This document shows, piece by piece, positions 3,284-63,955 of a stretch of DNA of 64,000 nucleotides. The notes below the pieces were generated by a model. The model was not told the origin of the DNA and did not search any database. It was given only the letters and a program-made list of their open reading frames with translations. The stretch is from Fistulifera solaris (Eukaryota), in contig AP026176.1 in assembly GCA_030295235.1 (NCBI GenBank), forward strand, positions 1-64,000. The letters run 5' to 3'. The number at the start of each line of letters is the position of its first letter. Within the stretch, counting starts at the first letter, position 1. A program made the translations under genes and the position numbers.

Positions 3284-6200
3284 ATGATACAATCATCCCT
3301 CAAGTCGGGGCAAAAGCGCTGCAGCCACTTCCCAGCAAATCCGTCTCCGACAAGAGAAATCTCCAAAGCTATCCTGTTGCCGAGGCCTTGTTGCAGGATC
3401 GACAATCTTTAAAATCGGATGAAGAAGCTGGTATCGAGGTATTAAAAGTTACAAAGGTAAGTAAGTCATATTTGTAAAGGACAGCGCCCAGTTATGAATT
3501 GTTTCTGACGAATTATTTTAATCAGCTATTCAAGTTACAACCTCGGCGAATCGCCATATCCCTGAATCGGAAGAACTTACTGGTGACTTCAGGACGTATT
3601 AAATCACTGAAAGGCATTTTACGAACAGCTATCTCTGCCAGGAGTATTTCTCTGGATCAGATTGATCGTATTCAGCGAGGATGTGTCACTAAACGCTTCC
3701 TGTCGGCCGCTCTTGAGCCAACTGCAATGCAACAAGCACTTTCGATAATATATTATGACTCAGGAAGCTTGGAATCTCTGGATCTAATCATACCTTCGCG
3801 GCGAGAATTTAAAATTGTTGTGCAGACTTTTGGAAGACTTGGCTGCATTGGCTGCAGTAGAGCGTCGGCGCTTATCGATTTTCGATCAAATCGCGCACTT
3901 TCATTTATCGCAATGCAGTATAAAACTCTCCGAATCCAGCATCTCTTACTCGCAATGGATGACAATAACTGATACGCTACACACTTCTCTTCCAAAGACG
4001 CGCTTAACAGACATTTTTCGGCGGCATTCCGATAAAGTTGCTCTGTCGGACGTTGGCTTGTTGTTATGTTACGTCTATGAAGAGTTGAACGCTGACAAGA
4101 CAGTGACACGGATATGGGACGAAATGTTGGAGGATGACCCAGTTAAAGACAAGGACAGCATTAGCGCAGTCGAGTTCCTTTCTTTCCTTCGAAAATATCA
4201 GAAATGCTCACATTATCAATTGGAGGAAGCTTGCGATCTCATACGCCGCTTACAATCAGGTCAGGAAGATCGCCTTACCAAAGCACAATTCTTGAAGTAC
4301 TTGACAGGTGATGCGAACGACTTGGTAGATCCCGAGCGGGCAAAGGAAGGAGTGCAAAACATGCACCAACCTTTATCTCGGTATTGGATACACAGTGCAC
4401 ACAGCACGTTTCGAACTACAGCGAAGCCAGTTAGTTTCGGCCGAACGTCGAGTAAAACCCAGCAGACATCGCGGATGAGCAAATGTATATGGCGGCATTA
4501 ATGCGCGGTGTGCGATGTTTGAACTGATAGTTTGGGATGGAATCGATCCCGACTCCGTGGTAGTGTCATCACAAAATCCAGCGAATTCGTCTTCCAGTTC
4601 GGTTCCTCTCGACGTGGTGTTGCGCATGATAGCCAATTTCGTGGAACAGTTTCCTTATTCTTTCCAATCATCCTACATTTGCAAATTTGCTGTCAGCAAC
4701 GTCTGCAAGCTCTGGCCGATCAGTTGGAATCCATCCTCGGCGCCTTCTTGCTTCGTCCGTCCAGCGGAGTGGATGATCACCTCAGTCTGCCGTCACCAGA
4801 CCAAGCACGAGGAAAAGTCATTATATTCAGCAAACGCCCCGTTGCTGGTTCTTCATCTGTCGTCATGGATGATTTTGATTGGGACATTGACAGCGAAAAG
4901 CAAATACCTGTTACTCATGAAGACGCGACGGTTGGAGATCGAACGAACAAAAGCGGCCGGCTTGTCGGGTTCGATGCGCATGGTCCTCTTTATTCTGTCG
5001 ACCCGGAATTATCCAGCAGGACACCCGATCAGTTATGGAAGCAGGCTATTATCGATGCTAAAGAAGCCACAGATTCTTTGGAGAAAGCTCAAGCACATGA
5101 ACGTGAACTGAACGACAAAGCGTTGCAACAAGCGAATTTGGCCGCAGAGCTCATGTCGCGTTTGGGAATTTCGCCGCATCAAATCAAAGAGAAAACATGT
5201 TTAGACCGCCGGAAAAACCCTACCAACGACCAAGTCATCTTTCAAGAAAGTCCTTCTATGGATGAAGAAGAAGGTGTCGAGATTCACGACATTTTGCCCC
5301 ATCTTGTAAGCGGAGATCAGACCCGTTACGAAAATGCTCTTTTAGAGGCTCAAGAAGCACAAAACGCGTAGAACATTGCAAAGAACGGTTAGAATTTGCT
5401 GAAAGAGAATTGGAAAGAGCGATTCAAGTTGCGCAATCCGATAAGGGAACCGACGTAGACGTTAGAGAACAAGCACGCAAAGCTGCAAACGAAGCTCGGA
5501 TACACAACGAAGATGCGATAGCGGCCGCCCAAAGGGTAGAACGCCTCAAAGAATTAGTTGCACAAATCGAAGACAAAGCTGGAAGTGCCGGAACCGTTGT
5601 ACAAACTGCGCTCACAGAGGCAAAAATATCCGAAAAACGTGCGTTCGATGCCGAGGCCCGAGCCGAACGAGCCCGCGTCGCCGCTGAACATGAGCGCAAG
5701 CGTGCTGAGGAAGAGACAAGGAAGGAAGAAATTTTAGAGAGGATTGTAAGTGATATTCACCAAGAGTGTCAGTTGGCGCAAAGTACATATGATCAGGTTC
5801 GTGAGCGGATTGAAAAGCAACTCTGCGTTTAGAACGGGCAAAAGAACAAATCCGATCGTTAGAAAACTCTAGCAAGTACCGAGAACAGTTGCTTTTGCAA
5901 GAAACGGAGTCCCGACCACTTGTAGTGCAGCACGCAGAAAAGATAGAGGAGCGAGACAATTGTTTAGCATTGATTGATAAGGCTACGCAAGAAAGTATTT
6001 TAGTCGACAAAAATCGAAAACAGTTGCAGCTGAAACTGGAGGAAAAGGCACAAGAGTGGCGGATCCAAGCCGAGCTCGCATCTCAGACACGTCGGAATGC
6101 AGATCGCTCGGTCCACGCCGCTGAAGAATTACTTGAGCATGCTATCGAAGAAAGAGAAGCGGCTGAACTTCGACACGTTGCGTACAAGAGAGCGGAATCA

Positions 6201-7467
6201 ACTGTCAGTGACCGCGGATCTCAGAAAGAATCGTTGTTCGCGCAACTAAAAGAAGCCGAACGTGCTTCTGTCGAAGCTGCTAAGCTTGCGGCGCAATCGA
6301 AACATCGCGCCTCCTTTCTGTTGGACGAACTTGATAAGGAAGCACTCAGTCTTACACAACAATTGGTCGATGAAAAGAAGTTGCACGTAGTACGATTGCA
6401 AGGCGAGCTCGACTCGGCACAACTATTGAAACAGCACAAAGAGTTGGAAGTTGAGAAAGAGGTACAACGATTGAAAACAGATTCGGAACTCATGAAAGGG
6501 ACAATGATAAGTGACGTCGTAACAGATAACAGTCAAGTGGACACCCCACGTGAAGCGGATGCTATCAGTGCTTACCAGAGCGCTGTTAAGCTGAAAGATG
6601 ACGCCAACAAGGCTTCGCTTTACACACAAGTTTTAATGAGTGAAGCCAACATGAAGCGTGAGGTGGCGAACCGGGCAAGTGAATACAAAATTCTGATGGA
6701 GATGACACTTGAGCTTCCAGACAAACTCAGTGCAATGATCTTCCTTTACTCCTGCCGATTGAGAAATTGGGCAAGCAGTATGTGTCTTTCGAATGTCCAT
6801 GCTCACAGTTTGTCACAGAGAGTGCTTGTCAAACGACTTGAAGAGAACGCCGGTGAAGAAGTCGACTTGAGAAAATTCACAAAAGATCATCTCTGCCGCA
6901 TTTTCCCTTATGGCAAAAGAACAAATCATTTCCTATGAAAGCGTGGTCTCTGGGATGTCAGTTCGCTGGCGTCAATCTTGCATTTCCTGATGAACAAGTA
7001 TTACTCGCAGAAGGCCGATTCCGTGAGAATGGTTCGTGTGGTTATGTGTTGAAGCCACGATATCTGACGCACGATTACGTTCGCGGAGCAGAACAGCCTC
7101 AACGCTGGGCTCTTCAAGTCATCAGCGGGTTTAACATTCCTTCATGCAGTAACAATGTCAATCTACGAGTCCAGGTCAAAGTGTGGACGGCGGACGGAGA
7201 GCCCATCATTCACGAGACAGGCGAAGTCAGTCGGAATTGTTTTAATCCATCGTGGGGAACGTGTTTGATCTGAAGATATCCGATCCGAGTATGGCCATGG
7301 TCAATTTCATCGTCTACAATGGCTCGGAATATCTCGCTGGTGCCTCTTTACCAGTTAGTTGCTGGAGGGAAGGATTTCGAAGCGTTGCACTTTTCAACGC
7401 AAATCATTCTCGTTCGGGGCCTTATGAGTTCGCTTGTCTGCTGGTTCAAGCAACACGGCACAGATGA
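3284..7467 (+). CDS. Phosphoinositide phospholipase C-like protein (PH, EF-hand, X, coiled coil, Y, C2); start approximate, frameshifted
   Basis: MHQPLSRYWIHSAHSTF, ALMRGVRC.ELIVWDG and LPSPDQARGKVII (X box); WSLGCQFAGVN...FRENGSCGYVLKP (Y box); C2-like C-terminus with NPSW and EGFRSVAL; GT-AG intron near 3457. Confidence 0.88.
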
Positions 7468-7541: not shown

Positions 7542-7613
7542 GGAAACGGCGTTAAAAATTCTGCCTCGTCGTAGACGCTACGTAGAATCGAGGCAGAATT
7601 TTAACGTCCTTTG
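7542..7613. repeat. Dispersed hairpin element, copy 1
   Basis: GGAAACGGCGTTAAAAATTCTGCCT...AGGCAGAATTTTAACGTCCTTT; homologous to copies near 31245 and 44886. Confidence 0.85.
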
Positions 7614-12491: not shown

Positions 12492-12569
12492 GCTCAAAGG
12501 CTTTGAAGCGGCAATAAGGAAAAAGGGACGATCCTTTTCTGCATGAGTAATAACATTCGAAACGAAAAT

Positions 12570-13470
12570 CATCCGTATCGTCGACTGCCATTTTTCACTA
12601 TGACAGTAAAGTGTAAGTTGCACGCGATCGCGACTGAATTTCAGTCACTCGAAACGCCACACCACCGAAGCAATGAAAACACCAAAGTTGTCTTCAAACA
12701 AAAGCGCGAAGTGTAACATCAAATGCCATGGAAATACCAATAATAAATGAATTAACTATCATCTATCATCTTCATTCGAAGCGCAGCTATTTGCGTCGGA
12801 AAGCATCCGTATCGTCGACTGGTTATTTTCATTATGATGGTAAAGTGTATGTTCTACGCGATCGCGACTCAACTTCAGTCACTCGAAACGCCACCGAAGC
12901 AATGAAAACACCAAAGTTGTCTTCAAACAAAAGCGCGAAGTGTAGAATCAAATGCCATGGAAAACCAATAATAAATGAATTAACTATCATCTATCATCTT
13001 CATTCGAAGCGCAGCTATTTGCGTCGGAAAGCATCCGTATCGTCGACTGGTTATTTTCATTATGATGGTAAAGTGTATGTTCTACGCGATCGCGACTCAA
13101 CTTCAGTCACTCGAAACGCCACCGAAGCAATGAGAGCACCGAAGTTGTTCAGTCTATAATTAATCAACATTTAAATACCAATATATAAATATGAACTAAC
13201 ATTTTCTTCACTCGAAACGCAACTATTTGCGTCGAAAAGCATCCGTACCAGGTACAGTACAGTATCGTCGACTGCAATTTGCACTAGGATGGTAAAGTGT
13301 TGGTTGTACGCGATCGAGAATAAATTTCAGTCACCATTAAAAGAAGAAAACAACATTGAAACGCCACCAAAGTTGTCCTCAAACAAAAACGCGAAGTGCA
13401 TACCATGTAATCGAATGCCCTGAAAATACCAATATATGAGATATGAACTACTGTATCATCTTCATTCGAA
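12570..13470. repeat. Tandem repeat, about 4 copies of a ~208-234 bp unit
   Basis: Landmark CATCCGTA..TCGTCGACTG at 12570, 12804, 13032 and 13240; copies 2 and 3 near-identical. Confidence 0.9.
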
Positions 13471-16887: not shown

Positions 16888-17877
16888 AGATAAAAAGAAA
16901 GTCTCTTTATTAAGCGTTTTCTTACCTGTCTGTGCGTAATACCTCCTGTGTATCCATGACGTTTGCTTTCGCATGTCAGACGTCTACGGTTCGGTTTGCG
17001 GACAACAGCTTCTCTGTCTGGAATAGAGTCTATTCCTTTTCCTGAAGTTTAGCATTCAGCTCTGATGCCGAGCGGTCTTCATCCATAAACCGAACAAGTA
17101 AATCAGCTTGGATGTTAGGTGGCTAAGATGATTGATGACTTGATTAATTGGTTCGCAATTTGCGATCTTCAAGGTGTTCGAATTTTAACTATCATCTACG
17201 GTGTACTGTTTATTGTTAAAAGTGAAGCTGTGATAACTTGATACGACTAATTTCTATGCAGTCATAGCAAAGAACATAAACGAAGACCGTTCCACGGAAA
17301 TGGTCTTTACTAAATACTAAGTTTTCTGTTTTCTTTAGGACTTTAGAATGAGTTTCTGAAAGAAAGAAAAAAAATATTTGTGCCAAAAGAGAAAAACCAG
17401 TGGAAAATTCAGTCAAATGTCGAAAAAGCATCCGCATTTCAGGAAAATTAGGAATAAATATGAGTTTAGCAAAAAAATCAACTCCACCTAAAATAATAAT
17501 CACAAAGTTTCTATGACTGGTGAACAATGAGCAATTATCACAAGTTGAACCTATCGGTATCCAGCTTCCAGATTTGATAGTCGAGCGTCGAGCGTGACGT
17601 GTCTGTGTTTCGTATTGTGTACGCAAGTATCCTGTGAAAAGGATTATACTCCGTGTAGTAGCTGTTCTTGACACCTAAGTGCTGACAATCACACACACTG
17701 TACTTTGTAGAATAAAAACTACCACACGTCACACGTATTATAGACGTCCACCACCCACCGGCGTTCGCCCAAACGCGAACAGCCAACTTTTCCTTCGTAA
17801 ATTGTAACAAACCCGAAGACCTTCATTGCTCTTCATTTGTCATGCATTCCATAAAACGAGTACCTTTCCAAATAATA

Positions 17878-26744: not shown

Positions 26745-29700
26745 CTAATCGGATTTCGTTCCGTATTTCGTGTGCGCAGCTTCTATCATGCCGGCGACGA
26801 CTTCCATACCTCTCGATTCCCACTCTTGTCGGTTCTTCTCGGCGTAATTCAAGTACTCGTCGCTGGAAACACCAAAGACGCCGCAGTCTTTCAATTTCTT
26901 TGCGAGAGGGATGATGTAAAAGTCGAAGAAACCGATCTCTCCCTTGTACCAGTTCTCAGAAGGATCAGTCGCAGACCTGCCTTGGATGTAGGCTCTGTAC
27001 ATTTCTTCGAACAACCTCTGGTTCCACTTTCTGTAAATGTGCCAGTGTTGCATCGTGTGAGCGACGTCAGAGGCCTGGATCAAGTGCTCAATGACAATGG
27101 TTGCCTTGCGGTCAACAGCGTCTTTCTCCGATTCTTCGACGTTGTTGCCACTAAACGCCCTTTCCCAGCGTTTGTTTCGGAGACACTTCAAATCCTTGTC
27201 CATGATATCAGTCGCCATGACGGAGTTGACGACGAGTTGACGGAACCTGATGCGATCACTCTCATTGGGGCATATGGCAAGCCACAGGTCACTAAAGTTT
27301 TATCCTGGAGCAACTCCCACGACAAATCGACCGAGTTTTGTTCGGCAACACTCTTGTCCTTGTAAAACCTGGCAAGTTGGGGATTTTCCTCGATGAGTTG
27401 TGTGTTCGGAACACCAGGATGGTCTACGTCATGAATCAAAGCCGAAAGGACACATGCAAACTGCGTGAGAGGGTCGGATGTGATCCCGTACGTGTAATCA
27501 TGCAAAGTAGATTCAAGATCGCTGTTCACGGCTTCCACATCGGGGGCCACAATGCGAGACAGGAGTTTGACCACGGACATTGTCACATGTGAAGCGTGCT
27601 CAAAATTGTGGAATGGATTGTTGTGATACATTGAGGCGATCGCGGCAACATATTCCTTCAATTGCGCTAAAACGACATCGCTGAGTTCCTCCTCTTTCAC
27701 TTCCGTCCCTGCGCCTCGCTTGAACACTGGCATGCGGATAATTTCTTGGACTTCTTCCAATGGAGTCGTTGTCAATTTGGTGAAGCTCAGCTGTCGGACC
27801 GATTCTTGAGTAGTCAACAGATCTTTGCGTCGGGCGATCACTTTCTTTAACATAGATGCGAGGACTTCCACAATCCACTTGACGAGGCGCTCTGTTTTTC
27901 TCCCATTACCTGAGTCATCAATTCAGAGGATGCTTCAGGGGCGTGGCCTCACCTAAGCCGCCGGAAGTTTCAGTTCGCTCGATGCCGTATCACTTCGAGT
28001 CCTGTTGGAGGCTTTGGTTGTGACAAGCCAGTAGGTTTGCAGCTCACCCTTCCCTTTAGCCACAACTTTTTCTTCACGCGGAGTCACCCAGTGTTCTTTA
28101 CCCGCCGCGATCAAAAGCCGTGCAGTTTCCTGTGAAATGTGAATTTTGCCAGGGAGCCCATTTGATTCCATTCTGCTAGCCGTGTTCATCGTATCGCCAA
28201 ACAATTGGAACCGCGAACGCTCACCGCGCAGCACACCGGCTGTCACCGGGCGCTGTGCAAATAGCGCGCATTTGAAGATCTGTTGTATCTGGACCGAGAA
28301 TCACCTCCAGCTTTTTCGTCAACGCATTCATCTTCTGCACGCAATCCACAGCAAAGCGGCACATTGCGACAGCGTGGTCCTTTCGAGGATCGGGTAGACC
28401 AGTAACAGCAACATAACAATCACCCACCGTCTCGACCTTGAAAACTCGACGAGCCTTGGCAATGTCATCCATGGCCTTGTAAATGGTTTCGAGCAAGATA
28501 AACACTTGAGTCGGCTCTCGCATGGAGCTCCAAGCGGTGAACCCTGCCAGATCTGCATTATTTGGGAAATTAAGAAACGGCGTGTTAGTGTCTACGGTCA
28601 GACTGCTGCTTATCTCGGTTCGTCGCCTCTCTTGACCTTGAGTGCTTACCTGCAAATAGCACTGTGGTTTCTGGAAATAAATCGGCGATGGGTTTTGTCT
28701 TGTACATGTACTCGTCGTTTTCGTCGTCCATTTCGTTATCGTCAGTTCCGCTTGACAAAAGGTCTTCAGGCGACTCTTACCATTGAGTGCTTTCTTTTCC
28801 TCACTCTCATTTTTGGCCTGGGCGAAAATGCGGTCGCAGACATTTGATGGGAACATTGAGGAAACGATTGCGTTGGTTCGGGTCATCGCAATTAACAACT
28901 TGCGGTTTCGTCGAACGACGAAAGTGTCGAACATGAGAAATGCAGTTATCATGAATATGAAGGCAAACACAAGCATGGTAGTGGTCTGGACTGCATTTTT
29001 CGAGCTGTACCGTTCTTCAAACTCTTTACTTGGGTAAACATGAAGATAATACAGACAGTGTCCTTCAACGGATGTCAATTCTTCCTCGGTGAATTCATCT
29101 GTGACCTGATAAAAGGAATTACGGTTTCCATGTGATCGTAATGGGCATCGTGCATGTCACCGATGCCTACGTATTTTACCTAAGACAGCATAATAGACAA
29201 AGCTTACAATGTGAGAAAATCAAGCCGTTGGGGGCAGCTGCTGTTACCCAATGAACATTGCACGTACCGATCGTCCTTCCACATTGTAGGTGAAAGACTG
29301 ATTACAGCTGTTCTTCAGAATCCCCGTGATTCCGGTAATGCCCTCGGGGAGCAAATTTACTAGGTTCGCATCCCAATAGAACAAAGAAAAACCTTGCCAA
29401 CAATTTTGGCGGTTTTCGGGTCAAACAAGTTATCGTATACTGGGTGAGCAAGGGCGCCGTATGGAGGAGCGTTTGCTAGATCAGGAGGTGGATCAAGCAC
29501 TCTCGACATTAAGGGCCTTCGGAACTTTTCAATTGCCTCGTTAGTTGCATTTGCTCCGAAAACGTAGGCGTCGACGTTGATGAAGTATGAGTCGAAAGAA
29601 GGAGGAGAGCCTTGCCAACGTGGGGAATATGGGCCCGGACCAGTTGGCATTCCTGGGAACGGGTTAACAATGGAGTAGTCGGTATCTGACAGGTTGAACA

Positions 29701-30379
29701 TATCGATTGTGAAGTTGTGTCCCGGCTCATCGAGATAAAGAGCAATCGAATCGTTGTACCACCCAATATTTTCGTTAGCGTAGGTCGCAAATGCATCATA
29801 CTCCTCACCACTAACAATGGGACACCAAGTGATATCAAATATACCTGACATTTCCCTAGCTTGGCGACCCACGACTTCAAACAAGTCAACCGTCACGAAC
29901 GGGTATGTTTCGTTCTTTTCGGTCGCAGATTTCATTACTTGCCCGGCAAGCATTTCACCTGCACTGAAGATGTCGCGAACCTGAGATTCGACGGCATTCT
30001 GAATGGCTGCTGCGTAAAATACATACTGCGGGACAATAGGGAGAGTTGTTGTGAGTAAGGAGGCGCTTATTATGATGAGGTAGTAGACCATTGCCCTCTT
30101 GAGTGAAGCAACACTTACGCTATCTTCGAATTCATCGACATCTTGAGCTTCTAAGAGACGGTAAGTGATAGTCGACACCACCACTGAAACTGCAATCAAA
30201 ATAAGCAAGGTAAAAATCCTCCATACTTGGACTTGTCTTGTCTCACGTTCAGTGATTTTCGCAACAGCTTCTTCTTCAGCCTTCTCCTGTTCAATGGCGT
30301 CCGCACTCTGCCGAGTTCCTCCGTCCGACGTCGACTCGCGATCATCAACGCTCCAAGAGTGGTCGTCCTCTTTGCTCAT
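26745..30379 (-). CDS. Membrane-anchored nucleotide cyclase (GC-type)-phosphodiesterase fusion; introns and frameshifts
   Basis: TM-extracellular domain-TM; cyclase motifs ADLAGFTAWSS, FKVETVGDCY and RFQLFGDTMNTASRMES; class I PDE motifs FHNFEHASHV, IHDVDHPG, MATDI, ASDVAH and EIGFFDF. Confidence 0.93.
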
Positions 30380-31069
30380 ATTGTTGCTGGTGTTTTGTTG
30401 TTGTTCTTGACGCTGCTCGGTCTATTTTATGGTATCTTCTGAAATTGTGGTGACTGCTTCGGCTGATTTGGCTCCGCCTTCAAGGTACCTTTTATGATTT
30501 TCTCTCCAATTCTCCGCAACATTGGGCCTTGTTGGGTAGACTAAGTCCCCTGTCAACACCAGTCAAAAATAAGCGGAAAGTGTGGCAGTTTTTTGTCGTC
30601 GGGCGTCGGGCAACCTGTTGGGAGTTGGGATCCTTTTGCTGGAGTCCGATCCAGGAGAGTAGAGAACTGATGGAACGTATCTATAAGTAAAAGTAGACCA
30701 GTAGAAATGGTGGAAGGCCATAGGTTAGTCATGAAGTAAGTAGTAAGTAGCTAAAAGGTACCGGTACGTGGTACAAATGGAAAGAGTAAACAGTTAATGA
30801 TATGGAGGCAAATGACTGTTGATTACTAGTCCCTAGTCAATGACGAAAATTTTCATGTTCCATGACCCATGACAATCTTTACCGCGGATCGATGATCCTC
30901 CATCCTTCATGCCTTTTGACTAGTACTTGTACAACATTTCCTAATATTTATTCCTAATTTCCTAATGTCAGAATGTAATCTTGACATTCGACAGAATTTT
31001 CCATTTTTCGTTTCATTTTTTCACATATATTTCAATCTGGCACTTCGCTTTTGTTGTTTGCCGTTTGCC

Positions 31070-32100
31070 GCTTTTGCTCTTAGCCGCTTGTTTCTCGTGT
31101 CATCGGTTTAACGGATTGTAGGGAAGCTAGAGCGACAAACGACAAACGACAAAGCTGAAACGACATTACAGTACCAGGTATTACAGATTAGGCCCTAATG
31201 CGAGCGGCGGCGAGACATAAAAGACAAGACGATAGCCCTGGGACTGGAAACGGCGTTAAAATTCTGCGTCTTCGTAGATACGTAGAATTTGGTACTGGAG
31301 AGCAGAATTTTGAATTTTAACGTCCTTTCCTGGGATCCATTGTACAGAGTACAGAGACTTCTATCGATCTAAAAACGCTCGCGGGGCGCGGGGCGCGGGG
31401 CACACCTAAATCCTAAATCTCACATCTCACTCAAATCTTGGTCCTGTGTCCTGTTTCGCGGCGAAGTGCGGATGATTAATGACCCAAATTTTCAGGATTT
31501 CGGATTTCAGATTTCAGTGGTCGAGTGTCGAGTGTCGAGTTCCGAGTTCTGGTGTTCCGAGTTCCGAGCCTACTACCTGGGTACTCTCTACTCTCTCTAC
31601 TCTCCTGGGACTGGGACCGTATGACGTACGAGTATGACCCAAGAGAGGCTCCGTGCTCCGTGCTCTATTCTCTAGAGATGGGTCTCGGTATAGTTCGACA
31701 CTCTCTAAAATAACAAATACGGAGTAACGAATATCGATATTCACGTAATAATAGCGTGTTAAAGTCATTTTTCCTAATATCGATATTTATCAATATTTGT
31801 ACGCCTGACAGACGGATTTGAGGCGTTTTACGCGAAAATGTCTGTATTTTGCGGGCGAAGACGATAATATTGATATTCGTAAAAATCCAAATATCGATAT
31901 TTGTCGGGTCTCGGTCTCGGTTCACCGGCCCTCGTTTCTCGGTTCGCAGTTCGCAGCTGAAATCAGAAATGCTGCACAAAATTTATGTCCGCTTTTAAAT
32001 TACTTCGGAAAATACTTGTAGCTAGGGACTATAGACTATAGAAGCAACGGGCAACAAGCAACAAGCAACAAGCACCAAGCAACGAGCGATGAAGCAATAG
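31070..32100. repeat. Field of unrelated short, mostly 7-bp, tandem duplications
   Basis: Examples: GACAAAC x3, CGCGGGG x3, CCTAAAT x2, GTCCTGT x2, GTCGAGT x3, CTACTCT x3, CTCCGTG x2, TTCGCAG x2, GACTATA x2, GCAACAA x3. Confidence 0.85.
31242..31330. repeat. Dispersed hairpin element, copy 2, carrying an extra GAATTTT
   Basis: GACTGGAAACGGCGTTAAAATTCTGC...GCAGAATTTTGAATTTTAACGTCCTTTCC. Confidence 0.85.
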
Positions 32101-32494
32101 GCAAAAATAGGCGATGCAATGAGTCAGTCTTAAGTCCTAACGATCGTTGCTTATGACTGACACAGTCACGACGAAATGAATGAATCATCGGGACGTTCAG
32201 CTTCCAGACAATCAAAACATGAAGACTAACAGGTCGCACGGCCGTTTTAACAAATGCGATTTTATACATGCAAAGCTACTGTTGGACTTGTTTATGTTCT
32301 ATTTTTTATTTTTTCAAGAAAAAAGCTGATTACCTGGAAGATGTGGGAATTAAGCCCTATTTGTTGCATCATACTTATGTGTACACCCTTTTCTACACTA
32401 AAATAATTTGTCGATCCACTATATACGATAATGTGACACCAAGCTTTAAGCCCTATCCTATATAGCGCGCAAGCCGAAAATTACATAGACACTA

Positions 32495-32617
32495 ACTTTC
32501 ATCAAAATCTGATGAAAGTGTACAACTTTATCATCATGCAACGGAAACTTTCATCAAAATTTGATGAAAGTGTACAACTGTCATCAAAATATGATGAAAG
32601 TGTATAACTTGTCATCA
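32495..32617. repeat. Three short repeats, each a hairpin TCATCA-AAATN-TGATGA followed by AAGTGTAYAAC
   Basis: Copies at 32495, 32547 and 32581. Confidence 0.8.
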
Positions 32618-33525
32618 CGAATGACTATTGATCAGTCACGAAAGAAAAATTCATCACAAAAATCATTAGAGTTAAAATCGTTCGTCGCTCTAGTCATCGC
32701 ACGGATGCTGCGTTTTGACTTTACGTGGCGTCAACCTTTCTTGCTAGCTGTTTTGATGTATCCCATCTATCCTGATTGATTTTGTCGTCTTCTTGATGAA
32801 TGTGCTTTTGAACGCTTCTTGTGAAAAAGCCATCAGGGTCTTAAGTCAGCTGCAAGTCTCGAATAAGGTGGGAGTATTCAATCGGCTGACGATCCGTAAC
32901 AAGCCTTGAATCGTCGAATTTTGGTTGGGAGTTTCGTGTTTCAAACCGAAAGCAAAAAAGGCCAGCCCTCGAGATTTCTTCGGGGGGTAAGAACCGTCAC
33001 CGTACCGGTACTCGGTACCTAGTAATAGTAATAGTGCATGAAATCACTCAAACAAGTGTCGTGTGGAGCGACAGAAGGACTAACGGGCACGCGGTTGCGG
33101 ACGTTAGACGGACCGGACGAGAAAGTACACCGCGCCACGCCACAGAAATCAAAGTACATTGATGATAAGAGTAGTGGATTCTATATATGCCAAATAGTTG
33201 TCTTGTTTCGACGGACTGACACACAAAAAAACATCGCCTTCGCCATCGCATGAGCGAGGAGCGAGAAACAACCCTTTGGCGATGGATCCTCTCGTGTGAT
33301 GTTTCCATTCTTTCTCTCTTCATTCGTTTCCTTTGACAATCCTATTGTTGTGATTTAAGCAGATCAACAAATTCTCTGGCAACGCAAACGAATATACGCA
33401 TTTAATATTATCGATTTCAGCTGAATTATTGACATCTGTGGCTATCGAGTGACTCCTCCCAGACAAACGCACACCTTCACACGCATCATCTCATTCTCTT
33501 AGCGTATTGTTGACATCACAAGAGA

Positions 33526-36500
33526 ATGAAATTCACATTCTACGTCGTTGAAGCACTCTCCGTCGTTAGTGCTGTGAGTGCATTTCATTCGTCGCTTTCA
33601 GTCAATCCCCACCATGCAAGACGACAGGCTTCTATTGTTACTCAACGTCAAATGATAGGAGGAAACTCGTATCTCGATTCTTTGCAATCTCCAAAAGATA
33701 ACGATGACCAACAGGAAAGCAGCAACAGCAGGAAAGAATACAGCAATTATCAGGATCCCTCTAGAGATCCGACGATTTTGAAAATTCGTCCTGAAGAGAC
33801 TTCGCCCATGTCAGCCGATCATACTCATTCACAAGATGAGCTTGCGTCGACAAACGTTCTAGCCGAGCTGGAGCAGGAAACGGAAATGAATCTTTTCATG
33901 AAACATCGATCGAGAAATTGCGACAACAATTTAAACCAATTATGGTCGGTGCTGAGAAAGAAGGAAGGGGATGACCACGACCATGATGAGTACCCCGCCG
34001 CCGTCATTCAACAACAACAACAATAATACCAATGGACCTCGCAATCCTCGATCGTTTGGTGGGGGCAACAATGGACCTAGTCGAAATAATAATGGACCGC
34101 CGCCGAATTGGGAACCGAGAGGAAACGCCAGTCCTTCTACGAATAACAATAGCAACAACAATGGACCGCCGCCGGGTTGGGAACCACGAGGCGGACCATC
34201 GCGAAATTTGAACAATGGTCCTCCGCCCGATGCACGACGACCCGATAACGTTGGTAATAATGGTATGCAGGGTGGCTGGAATCCAGAAGCAGGGCCCAAA
34301 GAGGAAGAGGTGGATCCTATGGCAGCCTATTTAGCAGCCGTAGGGCAAATGAAGCCTCCCTCAGCACCGGATACTCGTCGCAATGAAGGACCATTAACGA
34401 ATAATAATGCAAATTCACCGCGTGCTATGCAACCGCAAGGTATGCAAACTCCTCCTCCGCCTTCAATTCGAAACAATAACAATGATGGCCCTCCTCGTTC
34501 CTTCACTTCGTCGCCGCCGAATAATATGTCGGAATCTGGTCGACGACCCATGGAAATGCCACCGGCTCGAAATGACGCGCCTCCTCGTTCCTTCTCTGCT
34601 CCACAATCCAACAATGTACAAGCACGGCCCATGGAAATGCCACCAGCTCGTAACGATGGTCCACCACGTTCCTTCTCTTCGCCTCCGCCACCCGATACGA
34701 GTCGTAGGCCGATGGAAAGGCCCCGGCACGAAATGACGGCCCGCCTCGTTCTTTCTCCGCTCCACCAACAAATAATATGCCTGAATCAGCTCGAAGACCC
34801 ATGGAAATGCCTCCAGCTCGCAACGTTTCTCCGCCTCCAACAAACAACAATATGCCACCGCCCGACGCGACTCTACGGTCGATGGAAATGCCTCAATCAC
34901 GCAATATGCCGCCAGCATCGACTGGAAGGCCCACGGAGGCACGAAATGATGTTCAACCTCGCTCGTTCCCCCAGACACCTTCGGATACAGCGACTCGACG
35001 ACCCATGGAGATGCCACCGGCTCGAAGAGAAAGCTCAGCGAATCCCCATCTACTCCAGCAAGCTTCACACCACGACCTCCGACGGACAAGCCATTCTTTG
35101 CGACGGACAAGCTCGATATGCAAATTGACAATGCGGTTTCCAATGCAATGAATGCCGCTATGGGGGCCGATGGACGAAACAATTTGGATAAAAGCAACAA
35201 CTTGATTGAGAAAAGGCATTTTCTCAGGAGAGTTTGCTACAAGAAATAAAGGAGTCGAAGGAAAAGCTGTCTGGAGAATGGAATGATTTGATGAAATCCT
35301 TCGCAGAACCGTTTACATCTATTCTGCCAGCTCCAAAGCAATTTGAGCGGCCTCCCCACAAAGTATCAGGTCAAGGGCATGACGGAACGTATTATGAAAC
35401 GCATACCGGCTGAGCGACAAGCCTCGGGTGCTGGAGGTTCTTCTTCGTGGGAGGCTTTTCAACGAGCGGAAAAATTATGGACGCAGCTGAAGGAATTTCA
35501 GCCATTCACGTATGACGCGAAGTACATGGGAAGACCGGACCGTAATGGTAATCCTCCACCGCAAATGTTTGTTTACCAAGATATTGCCATGGGAAATCCA
35601 GCTTGTTGGTTGAAATTGCGGGAGCAGTATGGAAAAGAGCTTGATTTTGATGTTGTCGTATGTGGTGGGACGCTAGGTATTTTTTTCGCTACTGCATTAC
35701 AACTTCAAGGCCACAATGTATGTGTCGTAGAAGCAGGTGAATTGCGCGGGAGAGAACAGGAGTGGAACTTGAGCTTCGACGAGCTTTATGAACTTGTAGA
35801 AATGGGTGTTTTGACGGAACAAGATATTGATGACGCTATTCAGACTGACTTCCCTGGATGCCGATCTGGATTCAAGAACAAAGAAGTTACACCTTTGGAA
35901 GGAGGCTACATGGACAATCGGGTGGGGTTTGAGTGTTTTACGGAAGATGTGCTGAACCTCGGGGTTGCTCCGACCATATTGCTGCAACGCGCAGCCAAGA
36001 CATTTGTTAATAATGGCGGTGTCATTAAGGAGCGTACCCGTATGTCTGGAGTTGCCATCTCAGAACTGATTGGTGCGGCCGTAGATATTGGGGAAGATAA
36101 GGAGCCCATTACCGCTCGGTTGATTATCGATTGTATGGGAAACGGAAGCCCCATATCCAGACAACAACGTCACGGGCAGAAGCCGGATGGCGTGTGTGTC
36201 GTTGTTGGGTCCTGCGCGTCAGGATATGATGCGAAGACGAACGTGATCGGCGATTTAATCTACACGAATCAGGTTATTGCTGATAAGGGTCAAAATGGTA
36301 GACAGCAGTACTTTTGGGAAGCCTTCCCAGTCGGTATCGGTCGTAATGGCAAACAACCTGGAACAAGCGATGTAAAGACGACGTATATGTTCACTTACTT
36401 GGATGCTGATTCAACTAGACCCTCGTTGGAGTCTATCATGGAAGATTATTGGTCGTTGCTCCCTATTTATCAACCTTCGATTCAAAATCCCGACGAAGAC

Positions 36501-44885: not shown

Positions 44886-44973
44886 GGAAACGACGTTAAA
44901 ATTCTGCCTCGCCGTAGACAATACGTAAAAACTCGTACTGCAAGGCAGAATTTTAATGTCCTTTCCAGTCGTG
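44886..44973. repeat. Dispersed hairpin element, copy 3 (start approximate)
   Basis: GGAAACGACGTTAAAATTCTGCCT...AGGCAGAATTTTAATGTCCTTTCCAGTCGTG. Confidence 0.85.
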
Positions 44974-45006: not shown

Positions 45007-45790
45007 TCCAGAATTTCTGGAAGATCAGAAACGGTTTGTCAGGAAATTCCGGACCCTCAACAGAATTTCTGTATGATTAAACTTACCTGGTCCAGAACTT
45101 CTGGACCACACAGAGAACTTCTTTATGCTTAATGCCAGATACGCGTATTTATTTCAAAATTTCTGGAAAACCCACAAAATGGTTGTACTAGGTATGATGA
45201 TGTATGATCAAACAGACCGATATCAGAAATACAGATTTCAGTATGATCGAACATACCCGGTCCAGAATTTCTGGAGCATGAACAGACTTTCTGTGTGATT
45301 AATTTTACCTGGTCCAGAATTTCTGGACCACACAGAGAACTTCTTTATGCTTAATGCCAGATACGCGTATTTATTTCAAAATTTCTGGAAAACCCACAAA
45401 ATGGTTGTACTAGGTATGATGATGTATGATCAAACAGACCGATATCAGAAATACAGATTTCAGTATGATCGAACATACCCGGTCCAGAATTTTCTGGAGC
45501 ATGAACAGACTTTCTGTGTGATTAACTTTAACTGGTCCAGAATTTCTGGACCTCACACAGAACTTCTTTATGAGCAAAAAGGGTTCCATCTTTGTCAGAA
45601 TCGACATCCGAAAATCCACAGCCGCAAACCCCTGGGACGTTGGAAACCCACAAAACGTTTGTACCTTACTAGTCCTTGGTTGCACCAGGTATGATGGATG
45701 ATCAAACAGAACAGACCGGGGTTAGAAGTTTTAGACCTTATACAGAATTTCAGTATGATGAAACATATCTGGTCCAGAATGTCTGGACCA
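45007..45790. repeat. Tandem array, ~222-bp unit built around TCCAGAATTTCTGGA palindromes
   Basis: CTTTATGCTTAATGCCAGATACGCG at 45121 and 45343; many TCCAGAA(T)TTCTGGA copies. Confidence 0.9.
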
Positions 45791-46759
45791 TTGTTTTCGA
45801 AGTAAGGTTATTTGCAATGCCCCAATTTATTCTGATAAAGGCTGTAAATATGTAAAATCTTTCGACTGATAGGAATGAAGTGCTTTGCGGACAAGCAGTT
45901 TAGCTAGGTTTAAAAAAGTAAAAAATGTCTCTACTAGTTCTACTGCAGAACGGATCAAAAGTCGAAATGCCTTCATGCGTCAGGCTTCCCAACGGCCAAT
46001 AAGAGTTGTGCTTCAGTGGTTTGTCAGAAAGCTTTTTCGGCGTAAAAAAGTGCGGAGCGGGAAGCAAGGAGCAAGGGGAGGTGGGGGAGCGGGGAAGCAG
46101 AAAGTGTGCGATGGGAAGGAGGACATTATTATTGGATTATTTAGAGAGGCAACACAGTAAAGGTGGCGTCTGCGCTCTGCGCTGGCGCAAGGGGCTAGCG
46201 AAAAAGTTCCCAGTGCTTCTGCCTTTGCTTCTGGCACCAGGAAACAGGAAACAGGAAGCAGGGACACGAAGGACGAAGGACGAGAAGCAGGAAGCAGAAC
46301 GCAGAACTCGTCCGACTCCAAATTCAGAACCGCAAATACCATAAGTAATAATCGAGACAGGTACTATCGATTTCAGTGTAGGACTAAGGTGCGAAGGTGT
46401 CCCCTGCGAGGATTCGGGAACAAAATGAGTTACGAATCTGTACTCTCGACACGTGGATAATTGCTGACTTGTTACACCGTATCCGGCCATTTCAAGCCTT
46501 CCATAAAGTTTTCCCGAAACGGTATTGCGGTGATAGTCCACTGTAAGAATAGATGCAGTAATGACAGACCACGTCACAAGCACAGAACAACACTTGGTCA
46601 GAAAGATCCTCGTAGTCCTTATCGTAGTCTTCCTCCACTTCGCCGTCCATCCAAGATCAAAGGGCCCGAAGCAAAAAGACTTTTATGAAAAGGGGCAATT
46701 TCACACCATCCATAAAATCACACCTCGTCCGCCATCAATAAGGAACATTATATTCCAAC

Positions 46760-57049: not shown

Positions 57050-58359
57050 ACGATCCAAGGTTGAAACTTACCTTGCGTTGTATCGACCATTAATACTAAG
57101 CTAGGCTAAAACAGTTTCTTTTTTATATGATGGTTCTAAGACATTACGAAGCGTTAGGTCTCGCAGGTTGCGGTACCCTTCCAGTTTTGCGCGATGATTA
57201 ATAAAAGGCGAGTGTATTCTCTGCTTTTGAAAAGTTTCACCATCTCCGTCCTATAATTTTCATGTTCGCACCGTGCTGCGTCATGAATTGAGGTTTATAG
57301 ACGACCGTAAACCGTGAAGGTTCTAGAAAGCTAAATGACAACAGTCAATCCTACGGCATCTTAGCCACAAGAGGACTCGTCAGTTGTCAATAGTCAATAG
57401 TCACTAGCGAATCCTCTAGGTTTAGGTTATTCCGGTTAATTCCGGTTTCCGGTAGGTTCCTAGTTCCTAGTTTGGGGTTCCGGTGTTGGTTCCTGATTCC
57501 TGCGATCTTGAGATTGATTTTGACTGCAGTAAGTCACTGTCTACTTATAACATCCTATATCCTAAATCCTAAATCGGTGCCGATCGTTCCACGTCGTTCC
57601 ATGGAACATTGGATAAGGAATTACCTACTTTATCTTTTTTTCATCAAAATTTCTTCAATCTGCATCAATGCATTATTTCTTCAATATTACGAGGTCATTA
57701 TTACTTAATTACTCATTGTGAATTGAAGACCTTTTCTGGACAAGAGAAAAACAGGAAAAGCACAAGCCACAGCCAATTATATTCCATGTCTACTACAAGT
57801 AGTGCTCTTATTCGGCATGCCGCGGTCAATGTTCTCTGTTCTTCATGTGACTGACGAGCAGCACGTGGCGGCCCGACTGTATATTTATTTGTACGAGGTA
57901 CAGCTGTTCTTTTTTGGTTTTCTGTCTTTTTATTCTTCTCTCCCATCCACGCAAAAATTCCTGCTTGCGGACTTTTTTGACAGCGTCTTCTGGCTTCCAA
58001 ACTTCGACATCAAGAACCAACTATTGCGAAACAGTTCAAGGAATAAGGAATATCGAAACTTTACTTAATTTCAGACTGTACGGAAGACGAAGCGCAAAGC
58101 ACCATGGCTCAACAAAGCTGAACAAAGCAACCTACTTGCGACTTGCGAAGATCATCGACTGAGTTTTGAAAACGGTCGGTAACGAAACCGAAGGGGGCTG
58201 TTCGAAATAGGAAGTGGTCGGCTACCCGTTGTTGTCCTAAGCAAGAACCTTGCTTACCTGGGAGCTTACAAAAAGTTCACATTGCAGAATTGACAATTAC
58301 AAAAATTGCGAGGGTTCCATTGGCTTCAGTGTATCGACAAACATCTAAAGCATCGGCAA

Positions 58360-59547
58360 ATGGCGACGAGAATCTCATACCATGGTAGGAATACGATAGT
58401 TGGTTTATCGAGGTTCAAGCCCGACCTCACCCGCTGTTATCCTTACAGAATCAAAGAGCACGAAAACGGGAAAGCGACAACGGAGCAATGAAGATGTAGA
58501 AGACACCAATGTAAAGAAACATCGAGGTCTGGAAGTGACGCCAGGTAACAAAGAAGAGGAAACATTCCCAGCCAAGGTGAGAAAGGGGGCTTGTATGGAA
58601 CAAGTTTGCGTAAATGAATCCTTGACTTACTTTGTACATTCAAGTTAATGAAAATATTGGACGACGATAAAAACTGCATGTCAATCCGATGGTCACAAGA
58701 TGGAACCGTTTTCGCAATCCAGCAGGAGAGGTTTGAGGCTCATATGCTGGGCAAGCATTTCCCAAATTCGAGATTTGCTAGTTTCGTACGTCGATTGAGC
58801 CGCTGGGGCTTTGAAAGATCGGTGCGAGCAGAGTTTCCGTTGGATTGGATTGTGTATCGTCATCCTCTGTTTCGACGAGGCAAGGCAAATCTCTTGAAAA
58901 ATCTCACATCGGGACAAATGTACGAGATCAATGGTTTACAAGAAGAAACAGGCGCAAACATTATAAATGAAACTGCAACGAACCCAACGAATAACCTAAT
59001 TGCCTTGGGCTCGGAGTGTCAGATTGCTTCACTTCCTCGTGATCATGTCCCACTTGCGCAAGGCGTAGCGGAGGAGTTTTGGCAGGCGAAAATGGGCCAC
59101 GTTATGGCTGCCAGAAATGCTGGTCCGAACTTCGATGATTTAGGTTTTCGGAGCGGCAATGCAAGGATCGTACCGACACAAGCTGGAATTCAGGACACGC
59201 TTTTCATTGACCATTCCAATCTGGACAACGTATTGAACGGCCCATCCGTCTCCCCGTCCTCTGTCCACGACTCCATACTGAACAGGTTATCGAATGACCA
59301 GGGCGCTCAATTGAATTTGCAAGTTGACAACAGGCGACTGCTGGCCCTTCTACAAGGTTTGGAAAGACCCCTCACTGAAAGCGTTTTCCATGCCCGGCCT
59401 CCAGTAAATCCGTTCAATCAGTCGAATCTGCTAGCCGCACTAGAACTGATTCAGCGCGGAAGACAAGCCGCCACTACATTGCCATACAGTCACCTTTCCG
59501 ATGAAGACTTGATTCGTTACCTTCTATTGGCTCAAATTCGGCGCTGA
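58360..59547 (+). CDS. Heat-shock-factor-type DNA-binding protein, 2 introns
   Basis: FPAK|LMKIL...IRWSQDG..F...HFPNSRFASFVRRLSRWGF...YRHPLFRRG; introns about 58385-58448 and 58577-58644. Confidence 0.9.
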
Positions 59548-61271: not shown

Positions 61272-63955
61272 CTAACGGCGCCTGCCCCTGTCACCATGTG
61301 GATCCATATTTCCTCTACGTCGAGATCCATCACGCTGGGGTGGTAGCGGGGGTGGCGGACGGCGGCCCATTCCGCCAGGCATGGGCCTGCCGTAATAGCC
61401 AGGATCTTCAAAGGGAGGAGGATTTCCTATTCGGTCGTTCGGACGTACCATGCCGCGCCGGTCAGGATCGGAAGGGCCTGGGCCGTAGTGACTATCCGCA
61501 TTTCGTGGAGGATCGCGAAATCGGTTTTGGTCGTCGTCCCTTCTCGGTCGGTAAGGATCATTGTCCCGTTCGCGTTCACGTCGACCAATATCCTGGCGAT
61601 CACGTTCCTGTCGTTCTCGTTGGATATCGATCGGTCTGGCCGTTTCTCTTGTGCGATCCATGTCGTGAGGCCGGCCCATGTCTCTCGAGCGGTCCATTTC
61701 CCTAGCCCTGCCCATGTCATGGGACCTGCCTATGTCCCTTGGACGGTCCATTTCCCTTTCCCTATCGATGACATGCGGTCGATCCAGGTCTCTCAAGCGG
61801 TCCATATCCTTCGCCCTGTCCATGTCATGGGGTCGGCCCATGTCCCTTGGGCGGTCCATATCCCGCGCCCTTTCTATGTCATGGGGTCGGCCCATGTCCC
61901 TTGGGCGGTCCACATTTCGCGACCTGTCCATATCTCGGGGTCTATCCATAAAACCAGGCCGGTCAAAGTCACGTGGTCTTTCCATTTCCCTCGAGCGATC
62001 CATGTCACGTGGACGATCCATATCACGTGGTCTATTCATGTCTCGGCGATCCATATCATGAGGACGTTCCATGTCTCGTGGTCGTTCCATATCACGTGGT
62101 CTACTCATGTCTCGGCGATCCATATGATGAGGACGTTCCATGTCTCGTGACCGTTCCATATCACGACGACGATCCAAATCCCGTGGTCGGTCTATGTCCC
62201 TCAAAAGATCCACATCGCGCGGTAGGTCCATCTCTCTTGACCGATCTCCATCCCTCATTCGACCATAGTCACGATCCACTGACCGATCGCTCTTGTGGTC
62301 CCTGCGACGATCGCCTCTACTCTTTTTCTTCTTCTTGCGACTGCCACTGCGTGAACGCGACAATTCGTCTCCTTCGCGAGAGTTGCGACGACCGTCGGAG
62401 TTTTGTTTCTGCTTTTTGTAGGTGTGACTGTTTCCGTCCTCTTCCCCTTCTTCCCTATCCGAATAACGGTCATGATGACGATGTTGACTTTTCGACAATT
62501 TGTCGCGATTTCGTTTATTGTTGCTACCCCGAGACAAATCTGCGTCGGAATGGCCGCGACTTTTCCGTTCGCTGGCATCCTTGACACCAGCATTGTCATG
62601 CTTGCTTTTGGAATTACTAGAGTTAGGTTGCGCCAATTCAACTGCGGACATTGATTTTGATAATGGTGCTTTTTGTTGAAATCCTTCCTTCACCACACGT
62701 TTCATCATCGATTGATACACTTTGTCAAATTTGGCTTGCGCTTCGTCCGGAGTCCGTCCTTTCAACAACGCTTCTTCTTTGGCCTGTTCTGCGGCGGCCT
62801 TGGCTTCCTTGCGTTTCTTTTTGGTTTGAAACTCATGGAAATGCACGCCTTCATCTTCAAAGATGCGTCCTAATAGCGCTGGATCTTGTGGTGCAACTGG
62901 CTCCAACCAAAAGTACTTGTGTTGCAAGGAATTGGCGGCCGACACTCGTTTCCGCGGATCCCATTCCAGCATGCGTTCTAATAATGCCAAGGCGGATTCG
63001 GGTATTTTGCTTTCGTATTTGAGTTTGAGTCGATTTGGCAAGTGTTTTGGAACTGTCATTCCCGACGCCGTCCGTTTGGGGTCCTTTTTCAACTGATTTT
63101 GCATATAATCCCAAGTATCGTCCGCCGGCGTCCCCATCATATTCAGTATCAGTTGAAATTGATCCAGTTCTGTCTTTCCCGGAAACAGAGGTTTTCCCAA
63201 AAAGAGTTCGGCCAAAATACACCCAACCGACCAAATATCGACCGCTGGTCCATATTCTTGTGCACCGACAAGAATTTCGGGGGCCTGTACCACAGCGTGA
63301 TCACCTTGTTGGTCAATAAGAGTGCGTCATTACTGTTGGAATATTTGCCTCCGCTTGATGATGACACAGACTGATAAATGGGCGGTTCGATCGAACGCGC
63401 CAAACCAAAATCCGCCAATTTCAATCGAAAATGATTGTCCAGCAAAATGTTACTGCTTTTGATATCGCGATGAATGTACTTGTGTTGATGCAAATACGCC
63501 AAAGCCTGCAGCAATTGCTGCACGATGCATTTGATTTGTACCGGCGTGAAAGGGTGACCAATATCCAGCAGTCCCGACAAGTCGTGTGGCAAATACTCCA
63601 ACACGAGGAACAAATTTCCCTTGTACTTTTCGCGAACATCAATCACCAACGGCTTGTCCGGCTTGGAAGAAGAGGGCATGAGCGGTTCATCTTCGGGATC
63701 TAAATGCTCCACACCTTTACTGGTAACAACTTCGATGAGACGTAACAAATTCGGATGCTGCAAGCGCTTCAATATTTTGATTTCTCGTATCTGTTGCAAC
63801 GAGGTGCCCATGGTAGTTTGTGTGTGTGGATGCGGACGTAACTTTTTGAGGGCAACGACTCGTTGTGTATCTTTACAATACGCGCTATACACTTCTCCAT
63901 ATGTTCCTGATCCGATTTTGGAGGTCAGATCGTAATGTGCTAATGTACGAGTCAT
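61272..63955 (-). CDS. CDK9/CDK12 (CDKC)-like kinase with Arg/Asp-rich repeat tail; one frameshift near 63285
   Basis: IGSGTYGEV, VALKK, QQIREIKIL, HDLSGLL, HRDIKSSNILL, DFGLAR, TNKVITLWYR, DIWSVGCILAEL; FHEFQTKKKRK. Confidence 0.9.

Follow-up and report, generated by a model that had tools for sequence, protein, structure and literature searches.

The stretch of Fistulifera solaris DNA analysed here, 64 kb in length and referred to as the window, is a chromosome end: it carries a (CCCTAA)n telomere at positions 1-63, with variant CCTAGC units at 24-45, and the same CCCTAA unit is given in the available text of the F. solaris nanopore assembly paper. The window is gene-dense, with long open reading frames (ORFs) and a G+C content of ∼45%. 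Seven overlapping plus-strand ORFs in shifting frames occupy positions 3478-7270, the last of them containing a PI-PLC Y domain; the frame shifts may be due to the presence of several short introns, or to small indel errors in the assembly. Nested 18-, 54- and 108-nt repeats of the TCCATGTC... type lie at 61591-62186, within a long minus-strand ORF with a protein kinase domain at its end, and a 222-bp tandem repeat (2.3 copies, 96% matches) is found at 45059-45572.

The features that are the subject of this report are most concentrated in a gene-free stretch of 3.1 kb, positions 30380-33525. To its left, the minus-strand ORF at 29360-30379 probably represents exon 1 of a guanylate cyclase/phosphodiesterase gene continuing to ∼26748, with PF00211 and PF00233 present in the ORFs downstream. 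To the right lies a plus-strand gene (33526-35128, two overlapping ORFs) that encodes an Asn/Pro-rich protein with no Pfam match. Both read away from the gene-free stretch, and the two flanking genes, one on the minus and the other on the plus strand, therefore diverge. A metagenome scan with the flanking protein as query returned no matches.

Contigs from three runs (X1, X2 and X3) were compared with the window. The contigs of X1, a run of 2015, sum to 51.6 million letters, close to the published 51.7-Mbp assembly, and X1 was therefore taken as a DNA run, while X2 and X3 look like RNA runs. Transcript-like contigs of X2 and X3 match the right flanking gene at 33516-34985 with only ∼86-87% identity (for example, 102 other letters in 766) and appear to derive from a diverged second copy, probably that of the other subgenome. 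An X1 contig of the diverged gene copy has an upstream region that is much shorter and mostly unalignable. The diverged X1 contig that is ∼86% alike over 33516-34293, and probably represents the other subgenome, meets the duplication field only as pieces of 21-45 letters. One such piece starts exactly at the second copy of a GTCCTGT doublet, which is suggestive; it was not counted, as short pieces at 80% likeness may be spurious. Runs X2 and X3 give no cover over most of the field and have no bearing on expression either way.

The main field, positions 31056-32087, contains 18 exact 7-bp tandem duplications or triplications together with decayed copies, among them an AAGCAAC array (32042-32087) that reaches up to 6.6 copies. 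The 18 exact period-7 loci that start within 31056-32100 comprise 14 doublets and four triplets (CGACAAA, CGCGGGG, GTCGAGT and GCAACAA), and together they add 154 of the 1,045 letters in this interval. All 14 of the 7-nt units named in the initial annotation of this DNA were recovered as exact tandem copies. Four further doublets (CGTCGGG, GTTGGGA, AGTAAGT and CCATGAC) lie in the same intergenic stretch at 30597-30873, where they are spanned by an X1 contig of equal length, and in total 24 exact period-7 loci occur in 30380-33525. The only part of the main field devoid of 7-bp doublets is 31727-31905, which carries four palindromes of the AATATCGATATT type in direct and inverted orientation (31727-31746, 31772-31791, 31861-31880 and 31886-31905). 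A second palindromic sequence, a 30-nt unit (ACTTTCATCAAAATCTGATGAAAGT) present in 4.4 copies at 32494-32617, is located 0.4 kb to the right of the field.

Smaller fields are found elsewhere in the window. Six exact 7-bp loci lie within 245 nt at 46063-46307, between minus- and plus-strand ORFs whose starts face each other; another six, with additional decayed ones, are at 57386-58148, upstream of the HSF-type gene 58618-59544; and three doublets at 17321-17736 surround the second copy (17372-17464) of a short multi-copy module that also occurs at 30941-31032, such that both copies of the module are embedded in doublet fields. A part of this module, 30944-30975, has an X1 depth of 1583 in its bin and loose contig ends at 30943 and 30975, indicating that ∼32 nt recur very often in the genome. 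The existence of the fields at ∼46.1, 57.4-58.1 and 17.3-17.7 kb argues against one local hotspot. Indeed, 26 of the 50 exact loci in the window are outside the 30380-33525 stretch, in other non-coding parts, and the view that the duplications arise from a localised system is thus too narrow. The densest fields face gene starts, two lying between diverging genes and two upstream of HSF-type genes, although four cases are too few to establish a rule.

The distribution of the loci relative to coding sequence is distinctly uneven. Stop-to-stop ORFs of at least 100 aa cover 72% of the window, yet 32 of the 50 loci are outside every such ORF. The remaining 18 are in short ORFs without a Pfam match, while none of the 50 is located in an ORF with a Pfam match, which is what selection against frame shifts would leave. 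No known RNA genes or tRNAs were found as targets.

The duplications are highly specific for a single length. Exact tandem loci were counted across the 64-kb window and compared with the mean of 20 order-2 Markov simulations. At period 7 there were 50 loci against 3.65 expected, whereas period 8 (2 versus 1.3) and period 5 (57 versus 52) were close to expectation, and period 4 displayed little or no excess. The loci observed at period 6 (37 versus 12.6) and period 9 (4 versus 0.05) are largely coding triplet repeats and telomere. Two copies are present in 46 of the 50 period-7 loci and three in the other four. Within 31070-32100 the letter identity reaches 0.41 at lag 7; it is 0.32 at lag 14, while lags 1-6 and 8-13 give 0.24-0.30. 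Runs of at least seven identical letters were also counted for every lag from 1 to 60, with the telomere and long arrays masked, and here lag 7 gave 48 runs against 8, 15 and 5 at lags 5, 6 and 8, respectively, on a background of 2-8 except at multiples of three. The initial annotation had staked its interpretation on an excess at lag 7 over lags 5-9, and within the window that excess is present. When one mismatch was allowed, 136 loci were found at lag 7 (57.9 expected) and 27 at lag 8 (18.2 expected). The one-mismatch excess at lag 7 reflects a spread of ages, young and decayed copies both being present. Microsatellite slippage is associated with a smooth spectrum of unit sizes and with growth from existing repeats into multi-copy arrays; here the excess in non-coding DNA is limited to period 7.

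A palindromic module provides an internal control for the direction of change. The module, 80-85 nt in length with consensus arms GGAAACGRCGTTAAAATTC and GAATTTTAACGTCCTTTCC, occurs three times in the window, at 7542-7612 (copy 1), 31246-31330 (copy 2, within the main field) and 44886-44964 (copy 3). Copy 2 has 19-nt arms that are 89% complementary, and its right arm contains GAATTTT twice (31305-31318), while the letters in the left arm that pair with GAATTTT occur once. Alignment of the copies (alignment A1) shows a single GAATTTT in copies 1 and 3, as had been noticed in the first inspection of the sequence. The absence of the second unit from copies 1 and 3 shows that the 7-bp duplications are derived, having been added to DNA that was already there. 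Three contigs that align to the hairpin, two from X1 and one from X2, omit 1 + 2 + 4 = 7 letters at 31299-31311, and these shorter contigs appear to be other genomic copies with a single GAATTTT unit. Depth in X1 is 742 in the bin of copy 2, compared with ∼15-25 for single-copy contigs, and the module thus probably has dozens of copies in the genome. No clear target duplication and no Rfam match were found for the module, and a metagenome scan with the hairpin arm pattern gave no matches. Inspection by eye showed TGGGA on either side of copy 2, a match at 5 of 7 letters, compared with 0-2 of 7 for copies 1 and 3, and a 7-bp target duplication around the module was therefore dismissed as chance.

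Comparison with the X1 contigs bears on whether the doublets are real. The contig covering 31248-31743 has 495 letters against 496 in the window with no other letters, that covering 31896-32476 has 581 against 581 with one other letter, and that covering 30299-30974 has 676 against 676 with none. In total, 21 of the 24 loci in the intergenic stretch recur in X1 contigs at equal length, plus or minus one letter; X1 may come from the same sample as the window's assembly, which makes its independence uncertain. An origin of the doublets as assembly or sequencing artefacts of a long-read consensus has to be considered, since the published chromosome-scale F. solaris assembly relied, according to the available text, on nanopore reads processed with Canu and nanopolish, and the window and the X1 contigs differ by about one small gap per 250-300 letters. 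The reproduction of the loci in the 2015 contigs, with 0-1 other letters, speaks against such an origin, as do the presence of decayed copies, the avoidance of Pfam-matched ORFs and the biased ends of the units (see below). In addition, a CTATCAT doublet is present in both units (at 12756 and 12984) of a 228-bp tandem repeat, which would not be expected of an artefact and shows that the doublet is older than the larger duplication. The repeat itself spans 12566-13148 in 2.5 copies with 93% matches. The artefact explanation is thus largely refuted, and we regard it as exceedingly improbable.

The anatomy of the units provides information on how the duplications arise. The number of extra matching letters beyond the 14 of each doublet was 0, 1, 2, 3, 4, 5 and 6 in 18, 16, 6, 2, 3, 0 and 1 of the 46 doublets, respectively, compared with chance expectations of 25.8, 13.0, 4.9, 1.6, 0.5, 0.2 and 0.0. 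The mean is 1.13 extra letters against 0.67 by chance, and this slight excess derives partly from decayed third copies. As 18 of the 46 doublets have no extra letter at all, flanking microhomology is not required for their formation. Together with the preference for one length, this bears out the earlier view that the doublets are not the product of ordinary microsatellite slippage.

These data also weigh on a replication-based origin, in which a polymerase or flap error would re-copy ∼7 nt, the length being a structural property of the enzyme. The routes that may be envisaged are realignment of the primer, failure to remove an Okazaki flap (the situation in yeast rad27/FEN1 mutants) and templated insertion of the polymerase-theta type. 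In many genomes small insertions most commonly take the form of tandem duplications, the triplets and the array of up to 6.6 copies at 32042-32087 show that slippage acts on existing repeats, and the slight excess of extra letters points in the same direction. Known replication-based duplications, however, have broad length spectra, while a single length dominates here, and they usually need the flanking microhomology that 18 of 46 doublets lack. The flap-type duplications of yeast rad27/FEN1 mutants are of variable length, the duplicated segment being bounded by short direct repeats; the loci described here have a single length, and their extra matching letters are close to chance. Nor do replication errors give a reason for the symmetric preference at the ends of the units that is described below. 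Replication models account for later expansion to three or more copies, but leave the symmetric ends, the fixed length and the independence from microhomology unexplained, and such an origin, by whichever of these routes, is considered unlikely.

Apart from their end letters the units share no sequence. At the 18 loci where the register is unambiguous, the unit begins with G in nine and ends with C in nine. Expressed as the 5′ letter on either strand, G occupies 18 of 36 ends, compared with an expected 23% (p = 4e-4), and 15 of the 18 loci are G-first and/or C-last against 41% expected (p = 3e-4). The two preferences are independent, with both present at three loci, one alone at six and the other alone at six, and neither at three. 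When all 50 loci are considered, 42 are G-first or C-last in some allowed register, while random positions give 30.7 (s.d. 3.2); the equivalent counts for A, C and T are 29, 34 and 30. The letters flanking the doublet are A/T at 29 of 36 ends versus 21.3 expected when the built-in constraint is allowed for (p about 0.006). The units therefore lie in a weak two-fold symmetric site, A/T·G-N5-C·A/T (dots mark the unit boundaries), centred on unit position 4. Thus, of the earlier description of the duplications as fixed in length and arbitrary in sequence, the first part holds and the second does not. The symmetry of the bias about position 4 fits an exact 7-nt stagger rather than an 8-bp duplication minus one letter. 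The end bias, which comes from only 18-50 loci, could instead reflect better joining of blunt ends terminated by G:C pairs.

The loci are also tightly clustered. Successive loci are separated by gaps of at most 30 nt in 14 of 49 cases, as expected for an enzyme that prefers certain sites. Some loci overlap at offsets that are not multiples of 7, for example 31495/31503 and 31520/31536, indicating repeated hits at one spot.

The lack of a common sequence is informative with respect to a regulatory explanation, in which tandem 7-mers would be kept by selection as doubled protein-binding sites that tune two diverging promoters. The fields are intergenic, face gene starts and adjoin conserved multi-copy modules, a location in harmony with such a function. 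The units, however, have nothing in common beyond their end letters, and selection cannot explain why only length 7 arises. As selection acts on variants and creates none, a regulatory role may add to a mutational origin and cannot replace one; as the explanation of the doublets it is judged very unlikely.

On the evidence of this one 64-kb window, the 7-bp doublets are probably the scars of recurrent 7-nt staggered cuts that were filled in and rejoined. In the proposed mechanism the two strands would be cut 7 nt apart, leaving 5′ overhangs; both overhangs would be filled in and the ends ligated, such that the seven letters between the cuts are present twice. Cuts would prefer A/T·G on each strand, generating the A/T·G-N5-C·A/T site. 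Triplets may result from a second hit on a copy, or from later slippage. Selection would purge frame-shifting events from coding DNA, with the consequence that scars pile up in non-coding DNA and are densest in some intergenic stretches facing gene starts. A pair of staggered nicks followed by fill-in is the simplest process that accounts for a single length and a two-fold symmetric site without any need for homology, and it is from these properties that we infer the cut and the agent responsible. The initial annotation had proposed 7-nt staggered cuts with fill-in by a transposase or another nuclease. The cutting part of this proposal fits the data, including the weak symmetric end preference, while the window contains no transposon with 7-bp target site duplications and no transposase.

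If staggered cuts are indeed the source, two types of agent may be considered, with the balance tipped slightly towards an enzyme of the DDE transposase type, the scars then being 'empty' target-site duplications. In such a scheme an element would insert with a 7-nt stagger and later exit leaving blunt, intact flanks, or integration would abort, and rejoining of the blunt flanks would produce a clean doublet. The bunching of the loci would follow from local hopping together with a preference for open DNA, while a doubled target would offer the preferred site twice, leading to triplets. The slight lean towards a transposase is because the shape of the site resembles that of Tn5, whose target duplication has G first and C last with A and T flanks. 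The fixed length of the scars and, in a small sample, their two-fold symmetric target preference are features of empty target-site duplications; resident elements and a transposase gene, which would also be anticipated, were absent from the 64-kb window. A scan of the window for elements with inverted ends and 7-bp target duplications, as recommended in the initial annotation, gave one chance-level match only, and Pfam searches identified no transposase family among the 78 ORFs of at least 130 aa. Excision footprints of most known families are ragged, while those here are 50 clean scars (with 2 loci at period 8), which counts against transposon excision. The nearly equal alternative, again if the cuts are staggered, is a nuclease or recombinase, cellular or selfish, that has a 7-nt stagger and acts without an inserted element; a nuclease, or a tyrosine-type recombinase, would cut and insert nothing. 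With respect to elements already known in diatoms, the available text on the Phaeodactylum tricornutum MULE, a cut-and-paste element, gives target duplications of 9 bp, and a range of 8-11 bp is reported for the MULE superfamily in the accessible part of the MULE review. Within the available text of the literature on target site duplications of diatom DNA transposons, no 7-bp family was found.

It is possible, although we advance this only tentatively and think it less likely than not to hold in full, that an undescribed DNA-cutting activity operates in this raphid diatom. This would be either a new class of clean-excision transposase or a stand-alone nuclease or recombinase, which makes 7-nt 5′-staggered breaks at A/T·G-N5-C·A/T, mostly in intergenic DNA facing gene starts, and fill-in repair of these breaks would be the chief origin of small insertions. 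The type of event itself, whether a staggered break duplicated through fill-in or a target-site duplication left empty, is known. In the accessible literature that was searched, no diatom was described as having a natural and dense 7-bp signature of a single length with a readable site, and the available titles and abstracts on Fistulifera tandem repeats and transposable elements yielded nothing relevant.

A rough estimate of the rate can be made on the assumption that perfect 14-mers last ∼1/(14 × 4.8e-10) generations. The base-substitution rate used, 4.8e-10, is from another diatom, for which an indel rate of 0.00041 per haploid genome is also given in the available text (PMC6604790); the accessible part of the P. 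tricornutum mutation-accumulation paper contains too few indels for a spectrum. Fifty loci per 64 kb correspond to roughly 40,000 scars per ∼50-Mb genome, which by rough inference would need a neutral input whose order of magnitude is 3e-4 per genome and generation, close to the total indel rate given for that diatom. If this rate holds, 7-bp duplication would be a leading class of small insertion in the genome.

The proposed activity, if real, would be of interest in several respects. A steady supply of new tandem 7-mers would be raw material for promoter evolution, and the scars would allow the mutational signature of one enzyme to be read in a wild eukaryote; to our knowledge, single-enzyme signatures are rare outside cancer genomes and laboratory mutants. 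A signature that has a single length and a cut-site motif and is free of microhomology would allow the enzyme to be identified in an ecologically important alga. It would also let the activity be dated and mapped, and perhaps open chromatin or transposon traffic with it. Such a process would help to account for the de novo formation of short tandem repeats out of unique sequence, the mechanism of which is called unknown in the available text of a study of topA (PMC6954433). For annotation, 7-bp doublets would be a major class of difference between the two subgenomes and between strains.

Comparison with known systems places the duplications described here close to, and apart from, several processes. 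Target duplications of 7 bp are reportedly generated by Galileo/1360 of the P superfamily, and Dada is said to make duplications of 6-7 bp. Scars of cut-and-paste transposons resemble the present loci in their enzyme-set fixed length, weak two-fold symmetric target, clustering near gene starts and persistence after excision; they differ in that the window contains no such element or transposase, and in the cleanness and very high density of the present scars. Excision of P-type elements leaves behind fragments of their termini, while the targets of Dada are small-RNA genes, of which there are none here. The loci also do not have the appearance of hairpin (P-nucleotide) footprints of the hAT type, in which a short duplicated anchor is separated by palindromic filler. 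Units that fit a TNA triplet plus a 4-nt palindrome number 1 of 50, against 1.4 for random 7-mers, units holding any 4-nt palindrome number 15 of 50, against 16.8 at random, and the letters added in the hairpin control are a plain copy of those adjacent.

Among topoisomerases, the Escherichia coli topoisomerase I mutator R168C produces head-to-tail duplications of 2-19 bp for which, in the available text, the authors found no end motif (PMC6954433). These events, like those in F. solaris, are short, independent of existing repeats and located in hotspots, whereas the duplications here have one length and an end motif, and the topA product is a bacterial type IA enzyme. A parallel in mechanism is trapped Top2 in yeast, where, according to the accessible text, de novo duplications are most often of 4 bp, matching the 4-nt stagger of the enzyme, and are dependent on NHEJ (bioRxiv 10.1101/2020.05.03.075358). 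In both cases no pre-existing repeat is needed and hotspots occur; with Top2 the length of the duplication is the spacing of the nicks, the 5′ overhangs being filled and ligated, and the same is proposed here for a stagger that we infer. The Top2 events, at 2-4 bp, are shorter than the 7 bp observed in this genome, a length that excludes Top2 itself, and they are described in yeast mutants or upon overexpression, whereas the doublets are a standing feature of a wild genome. The human TOP2A mutator, from what is available of the report, is a related case (PMC8795545). Target-site duplications of transposons share the staggered geometry of Top2 fill-in. Engineered paired nicks on opposite strands reportedly lead to tandem duplication of the stretch between them; in those experiments the distance is chosen by the experimenter, while in F. 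solaris it is a natural constant of 7.
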